Shown one piece after another: positions 8,496-61,038 of a DNA stretch of 61,038 nt (positions within the stretch are counted from its first letter, which is position 1; each line of letters starts with the position of its first letter). A program made the translations under genes and the position numbers. The DNA is from a virus. The notes beneath the pieces are model-generated. The model made no database searches. It worked only from the letters and a program-made list of their open reading frames with translations, and was not told where the DNA came from. The stretch is taken from IMG/VR virus record IMGVR_UViG_3300045988_047031, positions 1 through 61,038 of that record. One strand, written 5' to 3'.

Positions 8496-8715
8496 GGTAT
8501 GTATTTTTATAGTTTTTATGGGTATTTCTCAGTTTTGGGAAGTTCGAGGCGCTATAATAGCCCTCAGAGGCCCATATTCGCCCTGTATCGCGTTTTATGT
8601 TGTAGTCCGGTAAATAGTTCATCTTTGGGCTAAAATGCTGTGATGGGCCTTATATGGCCTTATACGACGTGTTAGTATTTTGGGCATTTTTAAGATTTTT
8701 GAGGAGGATTACGCA

Positions 8716-11637
8716 TTGGATTTCGGAAATGTCTTCGGAAATGAAGAGGAAATCATGAATGATTTGAGCCAACTTTCGGATACCGGACGAGAAATTATCC
8801 TCAAACATATTGGGGTAAAACGGCGTTCCGGACGTTATCCTTGGGATCCATTTTTACATTTACCCAAGAATTATAAGTTCATCGAAGACCGTGATGAGCT
8901 TAAAAAACGGGGTCTAAGCGACAACGAAATCGCTAAAGAAATGGGTCTTTCAACAACAGTTTATCGTTCAAAAGTAACAATTGCCAAGGAAGAATTGAAA
9001 CAATATAACATGCAACGGATTGCAAAATTACAGTCTGAAGGTATGATTATTGACGATATTGCCAAGACAATTGGGACTACTGGACAGACTGTTCGTAACT
9101 ATTTGGAGGAAATTAAGAACCCAAATAAGAGTGCTCGGGCTAAAAGAGTGCAGACTGAAGCAGTCGCACAAACACTCGAAGACGCTGTAAAACGGTCAAA
9201 ATACATCGATGTTGGTAAGGGTGTGGAGATTCAGATGGGTATTTCCAAGGAAAAACTTAAGTCTGGACTCAATGCTTTGGTCGAATCTGGTGAATATGAG
9301 GTGCATAATCTACGTATTGCGCAGGTTACAGACAAGAATAATTCGACTCCAGTCAAGGTTTTGACGAAAAAAGGGGTAGAAAGAGCTGAAATCTATAAGA
9401 ATATGGATAAAGTTCGCCCTGTCGAAGAGTTTGCAATAAACGGCGATGCCCGTATGTTCCAACAAATGGAGCGCCCTAAGTCGATTGGATGGGATAGAGT
9501 GCATATTCGGTACGCAATTCCTGAAGGACAGAAGGGTCACGGGACAAATGACGATGGCGCAATGATGGACGGAGCCATGTTCTTACGTCCTGGTGTTAAA
9601 GATTTAAATCTTGGTAAAGCATCATATGCCCAAGTTCGTATTGCTGTAGGTGATACCCATTACCTTAAGGGTATGGCTTTATATGGTACCGAGGAAATGT
9701 TTAAAGGTATCCCTAAAGGTACCGATATTATCTTTAATACCAATAAGACAGCCAATAAGACGCCTCAGGAAGTCCTTAAAGAGCTTAAGAAGAACCCTGA
9801 AGGTGGGGCCCCTATCGAAGGCCCGAACCCGTTTGGAGCCACTGTAAAGCGCCAGAATACGCTTGTAGACAGTAACGGAAATCCTGTTTATAAACCTGGA
9901 GTTAAAGACCGGTTTGGAAATAAGGTTCCTCAAATTGGTTCTATCAATATCGTAAATGAGGAAGGCGATTGGGGTAGTTGGTCTAAAGCCTTATCTGCAC
10001 AGTTCCTTTCTAAACAACCTACGACTGTTGTGCATGAGCGATTGAAAGCAACTATGAAGCAGGTACAAGATGAGTATGAAAGTATTCAGAAAGTTACGAA
10101 TCCTGTTATCAAGAAACAATTGATGGAATCGTTTGTGTCTGACCTGGAATCTAAGCAGGTTCATATGAAAGCCGCAGCACCAAAAGGTTTCCAAGGACAT
10201 GTTATCTTACCGGTTCCTGATATGAAGGAGAATGAAGTATATGCTCCTAATTATAAGAATGGTGAGAAGGTTGTCCTTATCCGATATCCTCATGGTGGAC
10301 GATTTGAAATCCCTGAGCTGACTGTAAATAATAATAGTGTAGCTCGTAAGATGATATCTAAGGATAGCCCTGATGCTATTGGTATTCATCCGAAGGTTGC
10401 ATCTAAAATGTCTGGTGCCGACTTTGATGGGGATACTGCATATGTTATTCCAAATAATAAAGGGAAGTTTAAGAGTCGAGATAGTCTTAAAGAACTTAAG
10501 AACTTCGACCCTAACATGTATGCGGATAAGCCTGGTACATTTACACCAATTACTAAACGTTATCAACAAACTTTGATGGGTGTTGTATCAAACCTTATTA
10601 CTGATATGACATTACAAGGCGCCCCATCTAGTGAGATCGCGCGTGCTGTAAAACACTCAATGGTTGTTATTGATGCTGAGAAACATAAGCTTAATTATAG
10701 GCGCTCTGCTGAAGAGAATGGTATCGATGCATTAATGAAACGGTATATGACCCACGTTGATAGAGTTAACTATGGTGAGCTCGAGCGATATAATCCTAAG
10801 ACAAGACGGGTAGATAAAGTAATCGACCCTGAGAAATTAAAAAAGGATTTGACGCCGGGTAAAGAATATACCTCCGCCTCTACAATTATATCCCGCCATA
10901 AACAATCCGTTATTACTGACGGGTATCAAGTAGAAGTGCCCGATCCTAAATCTAAGTCGGGTGGTACTAAGATGGTATGGCGTAACAAGAAGGAAACTTA
11001 TCTTGTTAATATGGTTAAGGATGCCAATGTGTTCCTTGGCCCTAACGCAACCAAGACGGAGCATCATTATGCGGACTACATCAATGAACTCAAGGCCTTT
11101 AAGAATAAGGTCGACTCAGAAATGAGTGGTATCAAGATGCCGTCCCGTGATCCTAAAGCCGCTAAGATCTATGCAGAGGAAGTCCTGTCTATGAAGGACA
11201 AGGTCAACCAAGTAAAGATTAACCGTATCAAAGAACGCCAAGCGCAACGTATGGCTGAGGTATCAAGTAAAGCAGAGATTGCTCGTAGGTCAGAGGATGA
11301 AGTTCTGAAGAAGGATGAGATCTCTCGTATCAAACAACAAGCTTTGAACAAAGCAAGGTCTATGGTAGGTGCAGAAAGAACGCCCGTCACTATTACAGAT
11401 GACGAGTGGGATGCAGTACAATCTAATGCGGTATCGGGTACTCTACTGAAAGAACTGGTATCCTTTATGGATGATAGCCAGCTCAAGTCCCTTGCTACCC
11501 CAAGAGCTAACAAACAGATGACCGAAGCTCGTAAGAGTAAAGCTAAGGCCCTGCTTGCTAATGGCTATACAATAGCACAAGTAGCAGAAGCATTAGGTGT
11601 AAGTAGTTCTACTATTGGTAAGATCAAAGCTGAATAG
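8716..11637 (+). CDS. single-polypeptide two-barrel RNA polymerase candidate (YonO / RdRP-like) with HTH modules
   Basis: VVLIRYPHGG...IGIHPKVASKMSGADFDGDTAYVIP (DFDGD = nt 10420-10434) parallels the beta-prime NADFDGD barrel. Upstream YAQVRIAVGDTHYLKGMAL resembles the first barrel of RdRP/YonO-type enzymes. HTH-like segments lie near the N terminus (EIAKEMGLSTTVYRS, DIAKTIGTTGQTVRNYL) and the C terminus (IAQVAEALGVSSSTIGKI). Start uncertain: TTG 8680 (ORF track), TTG 8716 (GAGGAGGA RBS) or ATG 8755. Confidence 0.7.
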   Translation: MDFGNVFGNEEEIMNDLSQLSDTGREIILKHIGVKRRSGRYPWDPFLHLPKNYKFIEDRDELKKRGLSDNEIAKEMGLSTTVYRSKVTIAKEELKQYNMQRIAKLQSEGMIIDDIAKTIGTTGQTVRNYLEEIKNPNKSARAKRVQTEAVAQTLEDAVKRSKYIDVGKGVEIQMGISKEKLKSGLNALVESGEYEVHNLRIAQVTDKNNSTPVKVLTKKGVERAEIYKNMDKVRPVEEFAINGDARMFQQMERPKSIGWDRVHIRYAIPEGQKGHGTNDDGAMMDGAMFLRPGVKDLNLGKASYAQVRIAVGDTHYLKGMALYGTEEMFKGIPKGTDIIFNTNKTANKTPQEVLKELKKNPEGGAPIEGPNPFGATVKRQNTLVDSNGNPVYKPGVKDRFGNKVPQIGSINIVNEEGDWGSWSKALSAQFLSKQPTTVVHERLKATMKQVQDEYESIQKVTNPVIKKQLMESFVSDLESKQVHMKAAAPKGFQGHVILPVPDMKENEVYAPNYKNGEKVVLIRYPHGGRFEIPELTVNNNSVARKMISKDSPDAIGIHPKVASKMSGADFDGDTAYVIPNNKGKFKSRDSLKELKNFDPNMYADKPGTFTPITKRYQQTLMGVVSNLITDMTLQGAPSSEIARAVKHSMVVIDAEKHKLNYRRSAEENGIDALMKRYMTHVDRVNYGELERYNPKTRRVDKVIDPEKLKKDLTPGKEYTSASTIISRHKQSVITDGYQVEVPDPKSKSGGTKMVWRNKKETYLVNMVKDANVFLGPNATKTEHHYADYINELKAFKNKVDSEMSGIKMPSRDPKAAKIYAEEVLSMKDKVNQVKINRIKERQAQRMAEVSSKAEIARRSEDEVLKKDEISRIKQQALNKARSMVGAERTPVTITDDEWDAVQSNAVSGTLLKELVSFMDDSQLKSLATPRANKQMTEARKSKAKALLANGYTIAQVAEALGVSSSTIGKIKAE

Positions 11638-54352: not shown

Positions 54353-54703
54353 ATGTTTAAGAAACTATTTTCATGGTTTTCTAAAAAAGAAGTAGATGAC
54401 GATCCTCGCCCAATGGGGTTTGTCGCTACTGTAAATGGTTATAAGGATAAGGAGTTGTTTGAACCTAAAACCGATATCCTTATTATCCCTGAAGACCAGG
54501 AGACTGTTGTTGGTAGTATTCCGAATAGTAAAGTGAATATTCGCATCACACTACTTGACAATAATATTATCTACTACAATCCTCCTGGTGAACCTAATAT
54601 TCTACTAATGCCTTTCTATGACCGCGAGGAACTTAAGAATATTCTAGTTACCATGCGTGAACAAGGCATCCGTGGTGTCTTAGGTTGGAATATGCCGGTT
54701 TAG
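54353..54703 (+). CDS. hypothetical protein (116 aa)
   Basis: AAAGGAG RBS. Confidence 0.7.
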   Translation: MFKKLFSWFSKKEVDDDPRPMGFVATVNGYKDKELFEPKTDILIIPEDQETVVGSIPNSKVNIRITLLDNNIIYYNPPGEPNILLMPFYDREELKNILVTMREQGIRGVLGWNMPV

Positions 54704-54716
54704 GAGGGGCTGGGAG

Positions 54717-55274
54717 ATGTTGTATTTAATAGACTCTACTGTACAAAGTTCAAATCGTGTCATGTTTAAGGCGGTTGATTTTTTTGAGCGATATGGCGTT
54801 GAATATAAGATACTATCCACCTATAAGAAAACTCGAATGGGTGGTGGTGAATACACACCTAAACTTCCTCGTGAGCTGGCGGCTAAGATTGTGCGATATT
54901 TCGATTATAACATTAAGGGTATCTGCAAGCTACCAAACTCCTCATATGTTCGAGCCATGCATAAGATATCGCCTCAAGCTAAACGGGATTTGAAGTCTGG
55001 ACGTATTTACGATATGACCTGCTCACAGTTTATTGACTGGATTGCAGAGAATCCATGTATGTTAAAAATCACTGTTCTATATGATGATAAACGAGATATT
55101 ATCATATCGCATTTCAAAGAAGAGGACTTGCGCGTGTTTGTCCCTAAGGAATATCGTTCGGTTAGACGTAACCAAATACAATATACTGTCCTTAGTGAAC
55201 TCGGTCTGGCTTCACCTCTAGAAGAAGACCAACCTGGCGTAAAGACGCGCAAAAAATTACCGTCCTCTATATAG
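54717..55274 (+). CDS. Spx/ArsC-family-like protein lacking the CXXC motif
   Basis: N terminus MLYLIDSTVQSSNR..AVDFFERYGVEY versus Spx [27 protein letters not shown]. C terminus WIAENPCMLKITVLYDDKRDIIISHFKEEDLRVFVPKEYRS versus Spx [39 protein letters not shown]. Confidence 0.6.
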   Translation: MLYLIDSTVQSSNRVMFKAVDFFERYGVEYKILSTYKKTRMGGGEYTPKLPRELAAKIVRYFDYNIKGICKLPNSSYVRAMHKISPQAKRDLKSGRIYDMTCSQFIDWIAENPCMLKITVLYDDKRDIIISHFKEEDLRVFVPKEYRSVRRNQIQYTVLSELGLASPLEEDQPGVKTRKKLPSSI

Positions 55275-55283
55275 AAAGAGAGG
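55256..55283 (+). promoter_or_regulatory. phage promoter-like element, copy j (attaccgtcctctatatagaaagagagg)
   Basis: overlaps the 3' end and stop codon of the Spx-like gene; ATG 55292 is 8 nt downstream. Confidence 0.55.
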
Positions 55284-55291
55284 TATTAATT

Positions 55292-55438
55292 ATGGACAAA
55301 TTATCAAAAGGTTTTTCTGTTGCTATCTTGGGGGCATACGCTGTTATTGGCGTAACGCTTGCTTATGATATCTATGACAGAAGCGAATTGAAAGATAAGG
55401 TCGATGATTTTATCAAAAAGCTAAAGAAGGCTGAGTAA
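55292..55438 (+). CDS. micro-ORF, 48-aa TM peptide
   Basis: MDKLSKGFSVAILGAYAVIGVTLAYDIYDRSELKDKVDDFIKKLKKAE; consensus promoter/RBS; its 3' end plus terminator are duplicated at 60598-60636. Confidence 0.6.
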   Translation: MDKLSKGFSVAILGAYAVIGVTLAYDIYDRSELKDKVDDFIKKLKKAE

Positions 55439-55462
55439 ATTACTCGGCTTTTCTTTTTTTTT
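55430..55462 (+). terminator. intrinsic terminator (duplicated module)
   Basis: gctgagta-aat-tactcggc plus ttttcttttttttt. Confidence 0.7.
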
Positions 55463-55934: not shown

Positions 55935-57365
55935 ATGAAAAAACAAACTACACTTAAAATTGCTGCCATGGGTATCGCTCTCTTTGGTTCTGCTGTTGTT
56001 ACGGAGTCTGCATTTGCTGATGTGACAAAAGCCGAAGGGTCTACCGAACTTATTGCTACCGATCCTGCGGTGACTATCAGTAAAAATGAAGAGGACTCCA
56101 TTTGGTCGGATGTCAACGTAAACATCAAGACCGATATTCCTGATGAAGTTCCTATTAACGAAGGCGATAAGATGACTTTCAATATCCCAGAGGAGCTTAA
56201 TCTCGAAACCAGCTACGATTTCCCTGTATATAATGAAACAGGAGAAACTGAAGTTGGTACTGCTGATGTCAAGGCTAATGAACGTACTGTAACTACAACG
56301 TTCAATAATTATTTTACCGAGCATCCGCTGGATAAATCTATCAGCTTGAATTTTACCACTAAGATCAACCGTGAAGTTATGCAGGAAAACACCAAGCGTA
56401 ATGTTTCATTCAATGGTACTATTGTGGAAATCAACGCAGGTTCTAAAGGTACAATCAACCCTAATGAGGAATTGTACAAATACGGTTACCAAGACCGTGA
56501 CGATAAAGATCTTATCCACTGGGTTGCTCGTTTGAATTACAAGCGCCAAACAATGGAAGATGTAAACATCTCTGATACATGGTCTGATGATCAAGACTAT
56601 GTTGAGGGTAGCCTTATTTACAGCTACGTTAAAGATGTGGATCCATGGGTATATGACTCACCTGCTACTCAAGCTCGGGCGAATACTAAATTCAACAAGA
56701 ACGGTTTTACCACACACATCGATAAGATTGAAAACAAAATCTTGATGGTTGAGTATAAGACACGCTTGCGTACACCAGTTCTTTATAACCCAACTAACTT
56801 ATTCACAGCTAGCTGGAACGGAGGGTTTGTATCACACGAAGCTGAAACTAAACTTTATGATGGTAATGGTAAAGCAACTGGTAAATCCCGTCCAAAATGG
56901 GACAAACCAAATGATGCGCCTAAGTATGAGCTTCCTGAGTTTGAAGGAGGCGTTGTTCCTAACGATCCTCCAGTTTACAAAAACCCATCTATTGACTTAG
57001 CCGATATCCCATTGATGCCACCAGCGCCTACATTGGATTTGCCAGAATGGAAAGGCGGAACTGTACCATTTGACGCTCCTAAACACGACAAACCAGAATT
57101 CAACGGTGGTGTTATTCCTAATGATGCACCTATCGTAGACCTTCCAGAGTTGGTTATTCCTGAAATGCCAGCTCCTAAGGAAGATAAACCTAAAGTTGAA
57201 ATCAAAGAAAAACCAGTTAAACCAGCTAAGCAACAACCTCTTGGCCGACCTACCTTACCAGCAACAGGTAGTGATGAAACTACATATCTTGCCATTGGCG
57301 GTGTTGTAATTGGTGTACTCGCATTGGGCATGGCTGGAATGAAAAAGAAAGATGAGGAAAAATAA
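55935..57365 (+). CDS. LPXTG-anchored surface adhesin (collagen-binding/MSCRAMM-like A domain plus proline-rich repeats)
   Basis: signal peptide MKKQTTLKIAAMGIALFGSAVVTESAFA; GDKMTFNIPEELNLETSYDFPVYN...VTTTFNNYF resembles the Collagen_bind domain core; three PE(F/W)xGG(V/T)(V/I)P(N/F)D(A/P)P repeats; LPATG plus TM plus KKKDEEK. Confidence 0.8.
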   Translation: MKKQTTLKIAAMGIALFGSAVVTESAFADVTKAEGSTELIATDPAVTISKNEEDSIWSDVNVNIKTDIPDEVPINEGDKMTFNIPEELNLETSYDFPVYNETGETEVGTADVKANERTVTTTFNNYFTEHPLDKSISLNFTTKINREVMQENTKRNVSFNGTIVEINAGSKGTINPNEELYKYGYQDRDDKDLIHWVARLNYKRQTMEDVNISDTWSDDQDYVEGSLIYSYVKDVDPWVYDSPATQARANTKFNKNGFTTHIDKIENKILMVEYKTRLRTPVLYNPTNLFTASWNGGFVSHEAETKLYDGNGKATGKSRPKWDKPNDAPKYELPEFEGGVVPNDPPVYKNPSIDLADIPLMPPAPTLDLPEWKGGTVPFDAPKHDKPEFNGGVIPNDAPIVDLPELVIPEMPAPKEDKPKVEIKEKPVKPAKQQPLGRPTLPATGSDETTYLAIGGVVIGVLALGMAGMKKKDEEK

Positions 57366-60270: not shown

Positions 60271-60612
60271 ATGAAAGAAACATATAAATATGATGGTTGG
60301 TATCCTGGAGACGATAACGATGAAACACGATATGCGTTATTTATAGATGAGGTAACTAAACTAGCTTTGATAAAACCAATGTCTAAATCTGAACTTAAGG
60401 ATTTCGAAATGTTTAACTATTGCGAACCTGCAACATGGGACGCGTATGATAAACAAATGAAAGACGTAAATAAAGGTAAGACATTAGGATTATTATTGTT
60501 GGGAACAGTTGTCCCATTTACAGTAATTGCTATCTATCTAGGTCTCAAGAAAACTGGCCATATTAATAAGTTTAAAATGTGGTGTAAATCTAAATTCAAG
60601 AAGGCTGAGTAA
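60271..60612 (+). CDS. hypothetical protein with C-terminal TM (113 aa)
   Basis: N terminus is paralogous to 58529-58750; the C-terminal ...KKAE plus terminator are identical to the 55292 cassette. Confidence 0.7.
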   Translation: MKETYKYDGWYPGDDNDETRYALFIDEVTKLALIKPMSKSELKDFEMFNYCEPATWDAYDKQMKDVNKGKTLGLLLLGTVVPFTVIAIYLGLKKTGHINKFKMWCKSKFKKAE

Positions 60613-60636
60613 ATTACTCGGCTTTTCTTTTTTTTT
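60604..60636 (+). terminator. intrinsic terminator (duplicated module)
   Basis: same hairpin/T tract as 55430-55462. Confidence 0.7.
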
Positions 60637-60983: not shown

Positions 60984-61038
60984 AACACACCATACCGCTT
61001 CTTAAGAGTTTTTCGTGAGAACAAGTATGGCGAGATTA
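60984..61038. repeat. terminal direct repeat, copy 2
   Basis: identical to nt 1-55. Confidence 0.95.

Follow-up and report, generated by a model that had tools for sequence, protein, structure and literature searches.

A divergent phage-encoded Spx-fold protein without the Spx hallmark motifs, from relatives of Lactococcus phage 1706

Spx grips the alpha-CTD of RNA polymerase by three elements, alpha2, the alpha2-alpha3 loop and alpha5, with T53 and D54 hydrogen-bonding to the alpha-CTD, and three motifs are conserved in the Spx family, namely CXXC, G52 and RPI (PMC8501982). Gly52 has been called indispensable for binding to the alpha-CTD (PMC8501982, PMC5371413). In Lactobacillales, anti-activation by Spx is an established idea and competition of Spx paralogues for RpoA an accepted one (PMC7476776, PMC5371413). 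Some members of the family lack the redox switch: a 146-aa Listeria paralogue has no CXXC and is still Spx-like, and the same has been reported for some of the seven L. lactis paralogues. Spx-family genes have also been annotated in phages, among them Psychrobacillus phage Perkons (ORF36), Bacillus phage vB_BceM_WH1 (gp202), Bacillus phage G (gp564) and Lysinibacillus phage LC76P1, and the Perkons and WH1 proteins lack CXXC, as does the family described below. We found no experimentally characterised phage Spx-like protein in the literature.

Here we analyse a further case, a 185-aa protein encoded in a window of 61,038 nucleotides (the whole of IMG/VR virus record IMGVR_UViG_3300045988_047031), whose features are listed in Table 1. 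The protein is a genuine, full-length, very divergent derivative of Lactobacillales-type Spx, and a divergent family of Spx-fold phage proteins is founded on its ORF. Spx-like genes had already been annotated in phages, and one homologue belonging to the present family is labelled 'ArsC-like protein' in a GenBank metagenomic record. What is new here is a strongly derived variant, for which working 'like Spx' is only hypothetical.

Table 1. Coordinates of the Spx-like gene, its parts and related features in the window
Feature	Position	Strand	Basis or remark
Putative phage RNA polymerase, YonO/RdRP-like, 985 aa	8680..11637	+	phrog_4291, 1037 bits; GADFDGD
Primase-helicase/DNA polymerase fusion, 1381 aa	50205..54350	+	Synteny anchor; phrog_4210, DUF5906
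Upstream ORF, 116 aa	54353..54703	+	Always directly 5' of the Spx-like gene
Shine-Dalgarno sequence GGAGG	54703..54707	+	9 nt 5' of the ATG; overlaps the upstream gene's stop codon
Spx-like CDS, 185 aa and stop	54717..55274	+	ORF list, Spx homology, predicted Spx/ArsC fold, dN/dS 0.04-0.06
Residues 1-34, beta1-alpha1-beta2, corresponding to the N-terminal thioredoxin-like part of Spx	54717..54818	+	AF2, hhalign
Residues 35-46, between beta2 and alpha2: insertion 1, absent from Spx	54819..54854	+	hhalign gap, lower pLDDT
Residues 51-65, alpha2 and D63-Y64-[D/N]65 loop, corresponding to Spx alpha2 and E50-D51-G52 loop	54867..54911	+	Mapping, residue counts
Residues ~72-89, insertion 2, remodelled alpha3-alpha4 region	54930..54983	+	hhalign gaps, low alignment confidence
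Residues 97-158, alpha5-beta3-beta4-alpha6-alpha7	55005..55190	+	Direct sequence similarity to Spx 71-130
Residues ~160-185, tail, first acidic and then basic, predicted disordered; nothing equivalent in Spx	55194..55271	+	pLDDT <50 at 170-185
Promoter-like repeat TTACCGTCCTCTATATAGAAAGAGAGGTA	55257..55285	+	Overlaps the last codons, LPSSI*; precedes the next ORF
Downstream ORF, 48 aa, one hydrophobic helix	55292..55438	+	Homologue in L020
Intrinsic-terminator-like hairpin and T-run closing the gene block	55424..55462	+	Identical copy at 60598-60636

Homology to Spx and predicted fold

The Spx-like gene is real and under strong purifying selection, with a dN/dS of 0.04-0.06 as computed within two lineages. 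The ATG at 54717 is the true start, because every homologue has the N terminus M[LI]Y[LIV]IDS; the database gene call for this contig (P0001) begins at Met16, and its 170-aa product is hence truncated. On the minus strand, the interval 54717-55274 holds only short ORFs, without support. No Pfam model, PF03960 (ArsC) included, matches the 185-aa protein even at E<=10, and the one match found in PHROGs is meaningless. The Pfam blank and the different start of the database gene call are what a spurious ORF with a chance resemblance to Spx might show. This reading is refuted by the low dN/dS in both lineages, by synteny in about 40 contigs, by profile E-values of 1e-8 to 2e-9 and by a confident predicted fold, and we put its probability at practically nil.

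The original prediction had aligned both ends of the protein with B. subtilis Spx. At the C-terminal end the likeness is well beyond chance. BLASTP placed residues 109-155 on residues 83-127 of B. subtilis Spx (E 2e-5); three NCBIfam Spx models matched at E 8e-8, 7e-6 and 8e-5, and TIGR01617 also matched, these matches covering residues ~79-156, that is, the C-terminal half. Among PDB sequences, phmmer found the S. mutans Spx 3l78 (E 1.8e-4), and a profile built from 10 family sequences retrieved Spx chains only from the whole PDB sequence set, with E-values from 1.3e-8 for 3l78 to 2e-5 (7e-6 for B. subtilis Spx). The claimed likeness of the N-terminal half is too weak for pairwise methods, whereas profile-profile alignment supports it: hhalign aligned family residues 1-164 with Spx 1-131 in global mode (probability 96.2%, E 1.5e-9) and its local MAC mode paired residues 1-158 with Spx 1-130 (probability 96.3%, E 2e-9). 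The Spx side of these alignments consisted of 15 sequences, made up of B. subtilis-group proteins and of Spx genes that tblastn located in records labelled as phage, several of which are plainly bacterial (e.g. 'Streptococcus phage MissG2', with Mg-ATPase, Spx and RuvX); the homologues retrieved with B. subtilis Spx as query were all at least 85% identical, and thus too uniform for a diverse profile. All curated Spx/ArsC model cut-offs are missed (32.3 bits against a cut-off of 152 for NF009885, 26 against 123 for NF002459 and 18.4 against 75 for TIGR01617), yet the homology is significant (E 8e-8; hhalign 96%).

The homology is specifically to Spx, not to ArsC or glutaredoxin. On a small Spx panel, the family HMM scored S. 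mitis Spx highest (29 bits) and gave no score to an ArsC-like paralogue. This bears on the reading of the protein as a redox enzyme or carrier, either an ArsC arsenate reductase or a glutaredoxin/NrdH-like protein, which could appeal to the fold superfamily shared with ArsC and to the label of the GenBank homologue. The sequence matches are with Spx only and never with ArsC, residues 1-69 are free of Cys (the first being C70), no Cys is conserved in the family, and the equivalent of the cis-Pro of the thioredoxin fold is absent. Such a sequence effectively refutes a redox function, which we consider very improbable.

Structure prediction extends the comparison to the whole protein. An AF2 model from an alignment of 6 sequences was too weak (pLDDT 59), and the final model, for which 29 sequences were used, reached a pLDDT of 78.8 and a pTM of 0.70. 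Its elements follow the order beta1-alpha1-beta2-helical subdomain-beta3-beta4-alpha6-long alpha7, and both the fold and this order are common to the phage protein and to bacterial Spx, including SpxA1-SpxA2 (B. subtilis PDB entries 1Z3E, 3GFK and 7F75; streptococcal SpxA 3L78). Of the 20 best matches that Foldseek gave in the PDB, 19 were Spx/ArsC-family structures, among them all of the first 18. The best was 3gfk_A, the Spx chain of an Spx-alphaCTD complex (probability 1.0, target-normalised TM 0.64). The only good matches in a viral structure library were an uncharacterised member of the same family and, second-best, the Spx-like gp564 of Bacillus phage G. The model predicts an ArsC/Spx fold, in which a helical subdomain is inserted into a thioredoxin-like sheet of four strands. 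The fold had been named in advance as a point on which the original prediction could fail; as AF2 and Foldseek give an Spx/ArsC-like one, that reading is not refuted. Its central claim, an Spx/ArsC-family protein without the redox switch, agrees with the Spx-only matches, with hhalign and Foldseek and with the family-wide absence of CXXC.

Lost motifs and retained contact elements

CXXC occurs in 0/64 family sequences. By hhalign, C10 and C13 of Spx map to N13 and M16 of the phage protein, a placement that involves a 3-residue insertion. It had been predicted that TVQS replaces the redox-active motif; the motif is indeed absent, but TVQS is the wrong position, the counterpart being Q10..N13 when aligned without gaps and N13..M16 by hhalign. 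Spx G52 maps to N65, a position held by Asp in 47 and Asn in 17 of the 64 sequences, and no Gly is conserved at residues 62-68, the alignment posterior being moderate here. The third motif, R92-P93-I94, maps to I118-T119-V120, and in the family V, T, I or A occupies the first of these positions, T, G or F the second and I or V the third. None of the three Spx hallmarks is therefore left, since CXXC, G52 and RPI are the motifs named for the family (PMC8501982), and on sequence criteria the protein is a homologue that fails the defining-motif tests of Spx. Bacterial Spx differs from it in all three, and even the CXXC-less host paralogues keep the TENG/TEDG glycine and an RPI-type motif, whereas the phage family keeps neither. 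The counterparts of T53 and D54 are I/L and S/K.

The phage protein further differs from bacterial Spx in two insertions, some 25 extra C-terminal residues and a different C-terminal end. A single middle insertion had been predicted; an insertion does exist, but there are two of them, at residues ~35-46 (~12 aa relative to Spx) and ~72-89 (~12-18 aa). The C-terminal tail had been put at ~40 aa, which is too long: because residues 144-158 align with the C-terminal helix of Spx, the part beyond the Spx end (~160-185) measures only ~25 aa. The tail differs between lineages in length and sequence, with C-termini such as ..SSI, ..KWEL and ..EED, all unlike Spx, and an Spx-like C-terminal end for ClpXP-dependent turnover is absent.

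Control of Spx by ClpXP, and in Bacillales also by YjbH, acts through its C-terminal region. One might thus imagine the phage protein as a decoy for Spx turnover, soaking up ClpXP or an adaptor and so stabilising host Spx paralogues or protecting phage proteins, and it fits this idea that the resemblance to Spx is strongest in the C-terminal half, up to and including the C-terminal helix (residues 97-158, aligned with Spx 71-130). The same half, however, is also simply the structural core of the fold, and the extreme C-terminus is un-Spx-like, variable among lineages and, in the window, dictated by an overlapping DNA motif. To our knowledge, moreover, YjbH is not a feature of streptococci. We regard a decoy role as unlikely.

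All three alpha-CTD-contacting elements are retained in the hhalign alignment, and both insertions lie outside them. The most conserved residues of the family, D63-Y64-[D/N]65 and L102-S103, fall in these elements. Of the 64 sequences, 56 have D63, 63 have Y64, all have D or N at 65, 49 have L102 and all have S103. The first group stands where Spx has E50-D51-G52, the alignment posterior around the loop being only moderate, and the second replaces L76-Q77. The counterparts of Spx L46, V71, L76 and L79 are hydrophobic throughout the 64 sequences. At the position of M74 there is M in 33, K in 28 and L in 3, i.e. a hydrophobic residue in 36/64, and at that of R47 a basic residue in 52/64. From this pattern, binding of the phage protein to the alpha-CTD of host RNA polymerase appears plausible. 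The loss of Gly52 counts against a canonical alpha-CTD interface, and the loss of the T53/D54 contacts, together with scores far below the cut-offs, counts against docking on the alpha-CTD.

These losses may instead reflect an Spx scaffold that was repurposed, the fold being kept and a different partner being bound by the remodelled helical subdomain, with the alpha-CTD no longer the target. The disappearance of all three hallmark motifs, the remodelling of the helical subdomain by two insertions, the changed chemistry of the loop (from E-D-G to D-Y-D/N) and the higher pI (9.5, against 7.8 for Spx) would all be consistent with a new partner. Another host protein, the phage RNA polymerase and the co-varying 116-aa neighbour, which always adjoins the gene and diverges in parallel with it, are candidates. 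On the other hand, the nearest similarity is to the RNA polymerase-binding Spx and not to other members of the superfamily, the insertions avoid the elements that contact the alpha-CTD, and no result points to an alternative partner. We take repurposing to be a serious possibility, if on balance an improbable one.

The family and the phages that carry it

When 1.84 billion representative proteins were searched exhaustively with HMMER, only ~8 clusters of relatives of 165-190 aa emerged, with identities down to 28%; a profile search for the family returned 31 proteins, and a scan of IMG/VR returned 40 contigs with a family member, mostly of 55-62 kb. The 64 distinct family sequences make up eight subfamilies that are <60% identical to each other. 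Two further candidates (P0015 and P0016) were rejected as artefacts of long repeat proteins, and a third (P0017) as a fragment or chimera containing a streptococcal Spx C-terminus. A scan of a genome collection gave one contig only; its 'Saccharibacteria' bin is almost certainly an error, the contig being that of a phage. The family is confined to ~40 uncultured phages of ~60 kb related to Lactococcus phage 1706, their nearest cultured relative. No match to the Spx-like gene was found by tblastn over isolated GenBank phages, 1706 included, nor by a family-HMM scan of twelve right-arm ORFs of 1706 (ten of them between the polymerase and orf65). The Spx proteins of large Bacillales phages retain Gly52 and an xPI/xPL motif, unlike this family, and score 4-22 bits with the family HMM, against 29 for S. 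mitis Spx. As they are no closer to the family than bacterial Spx is, these scores point to an independent capture.

The whole region is on the plus strand, with the polymerase fusion followed by the 116-aa ORF, the Spx-like gene, the 48-aa ORF and the hairpin. This gene order is maintained in divergent relatives, and the Spx-like gene always comes after the primase-polymerase, in ~40 contigs. The 116-aa ORF had no match in Pfam, PHROGs or the PDB. When lineages are compared, identity amounts to 85-86% for the polymerase but only to 35-43% for the 116-aa ORF and 31-33% for the Spx-like protein, so that the upstream ORF diverges as fast as the Spx-like gene. Strong constraint within lineages combined with a sharp difference between them fits either allele exchange or adaptation to different targets.

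The two ends of the window share an overlap of 54 nt, so that it is probably a complete genome; its G+C content is 40.4%. Scans of the window for tRNA genes and against Rfam gave no match, and there was no integrase among the ORFs scanned. The CHAP endolysin is closest to the lysins of Streptococcus prophages, and the host is probably Streptococcus, as judged from the relatives of the endolysin, the G+C content of 40% and the best-scoring Spx.

The original prediction had also supposed that the phage brings its own RNA polymerase, and a putative one is present. The 985-aa ORF matches phrog_4291, which bears the label 'RNA-dependent RNA polymerase', and carries HTH domains at both ends (Pfam) as well as the catalytic-loop motif GADFDGD. 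Its family is that of the YonO/crAss-like putative RNA polymerases with a DxDGD loop (bioRxiv 10.1101/842583). Homologues occur in the 1706-like Lactococcus phages and in many actinophages. Since the 1706 group has this polymerase and no detected match to the Spx-like gene, the two genes are not obligately linked. A polymerase of its own, if it is one, would make interference with host RNA polymerase affordable for the phage.

Possible action on host transcription

T7 Gp2 and gp67 of S. aureus phage G1 are inhibitors or modifiers of host RNA polymerase that let the phage polymerase take over. The likeness to the present case lies in the proposed logic only, a small protein of the early or middle phase of infection that would bind the host enzyme and cripple part of host transcription, there being no sequence or fold relationship. 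The explanation that we think best, while putting its chances somewhat below even, is that the phage protein docks on host RNA polymerase by the Spx face and acts as a constitutive competitor or anti-activator. The protein would be made along with the replication genes and would dock by the face that Spx uses, i.e. alpha2, the alpha2-alpha3 loop and alpha5. Lacking the residues with which Spx reads the -44 promoter element, it would be a redox-blind competitor or anti-activator and not an activator, and, as it has neither a CXXC-controlled alpha4 nor an R92-type base contact, its action would be constitutive. With the alpha-CTD occupied, host Spx paralogues and activators would be displaced and activator- and UP-element-dependent host transcription blunted, while the phage genes would be transcribed by the YonO-like polymerase of the phage. 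The simple 'constitutively active Spx mimic' of the original prediction is less easily upheld: the replacement of Gly52 by Asp or Asn in 64/64 sequences and the loss of RPI speak against it, as do the 1706-like phages, which have the same polymerase and no match to the Spx-like gene.

One might go further and speculate that a captured host Spx, stripped of its redox control, its promoter-reading residues and its degradation signal, has become a stable and dominant 'anti-alpha' factor, a more specific proposal that we find rather doubtful. Such a factor would silence host transcription that depends on activators, UP elements or Spx paralogues, including the envelope and oxidative stress responses, and the HTH-flanked YonO-like RNA polymerase would transcribe the phage genes from TTTACA-N4-5-CTATATAGAAAG elements. 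On this view, lineages would differ so sharply because each is tuned to a different host RpoA or Spx set.

Should the phage protein bind to host RNA polymerase, it would provide the first characterised example of the host Spx fold being used by a phage against the host transcription machinery, and a natural, redox-independent minimal Spx that separates the parts needed for alpha-CTD docking from those needed for promoter activation. Binding to another partner would demonstrate that re-targeting of the Spx scaffold is possible. In either event, a 'hypothetical' gene that is conserved in a widespread group of human-associated phages gains a name and a testable hypothesis, and attention is drawn to the putative RNA polymerase of these phages and to its candidate promoters.

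The candidate promoters are copies of a repeat with the consensus TTTACA-N4-5-(C/T)(T/A)CTATATAGAAAG, followed by a purine-rich ribosome-binding site. At least 7 copies lie within 41-60 kb of the window, on the plus strand only and always 15-25 nt 5' of an ATG; 0.03 chance matches to the 16-mer core would be expected. A sigma-A promoter was rejected, the spacing from TTTACA to TATA being only ~8-10 nt, and the repeat is a candidate promoter for the phage polymerase. The conserved ..SSI ending of the protein is explained by this overlapping DNA motif, which sets the last codons; a degron or interaction motif was accordingly rejected. In divergent relatives, the repeat stands directly after the stop codon of the Spx-like gene.

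A repeated element and the putative phage RNA polymerase

A conserved element, TTTTTACA-N4-5-(C/T)(T/A)CTATATAGAAAG, roughly 25 nt long, recurs in the window and is also found in the database loci L017-L038; it is followed by a purine-rich SD, with the ATG lying 15-25 nt downstream. Within the window, the element is confined to the + strand and to the non-structural arm; Lactococcus phage 1706 lacks it in its right arm. Its spacing does not fit a sigma-A promoter; its design is reminiscent of single-subunit phage RNAP promoters. We consider the element a candidate promoter for the phage's own YonO-like polymerase, a 985-aa protein. Its homologues in the 1706-like and P092-like phages of Lactococcus are 48-51% identical. 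Those in phages of Streptomyces, Gordonia and Arthrobacter share about 39-40% identity, and a large number of these carry only the label "HTH DNA-binding protein". Two terminator-like hairpins with T-runs, identical to each other, lie 5.2 kb apart.

Coordinates and strand of features in the window
Feature	Position	Strand	Remarks
Element of ~25 nt	40995, 41954, 43208, 45894, 55257, 58487 (weaker), 58774, 60236	+	
Terminator-like hairpins (39 nt)	55424-55462, 60598-60636	+	AAGAAGGCTGAGTAAATTACTCGGCTTTTCTTTTTTTTT
985-aa protein	8680-11637	+	phrog_4291 match; GADFDGD loop; HTH domains at N- and C-terminal ends
116-aa ORF	54353-54703	+	always directly upstream of the Spx-like gene
LPXTG cell-wall-anchored protein	55935-57365	+	Big_8 and collagen-binding domains; Pro-rich repeat region

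Neighbours of the Spx-like gene

The 116-aa ORF, for which no relatives were detectable in Pfam, PHROGs or PDB, shows only 35-43% identity between lineages, versus 86% for the adjacent polymerase (the primase-helicase/DNA polymerase fusion), and diverges as fast as the Spx-like gene, of which it is possibly a functional partner. The public gene call for the Spx-like gene (P0001) begins at Met16, leaving out window positions 54717-54761 and thereby cutting off the conserved beta1 strand (MLYLIDS...). Further downstream, the phage encodes an LPXTG protein. Some related phages have a conserved version (52-56% identity), and it is missing from others (L020, L034). Such a protein is an unusual cargo for a phage that is apparently virulent.

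Origin of the records and genome ends

Several GenBank "phage" records with a canonical Spx (among them L043-L048 and L052, labelled UNVERIFIED_ORG) resemble bacterial chromosomal DNA; L047, for instance (OL774866.1, "Streptococcus phage MissG2"), carries Mg-ATPase, Spx and RuvX. Collections of this kind therefore give inflated counts of "phage-encoded Spx". An 11-kb contig with the polymerase and Spx-like block of this phage (L002, CAUUCV010000011.1) was assigned to a "Candidatus Saccharibacteria" MAG, most likely through a binning error; the assignment hints at an oral-type sample. As for the window itself, nt 1-54 are repeated at 60985-61038, a sign that the genome either was assembled as a circle and is probably complete or has a terminal redundancy.
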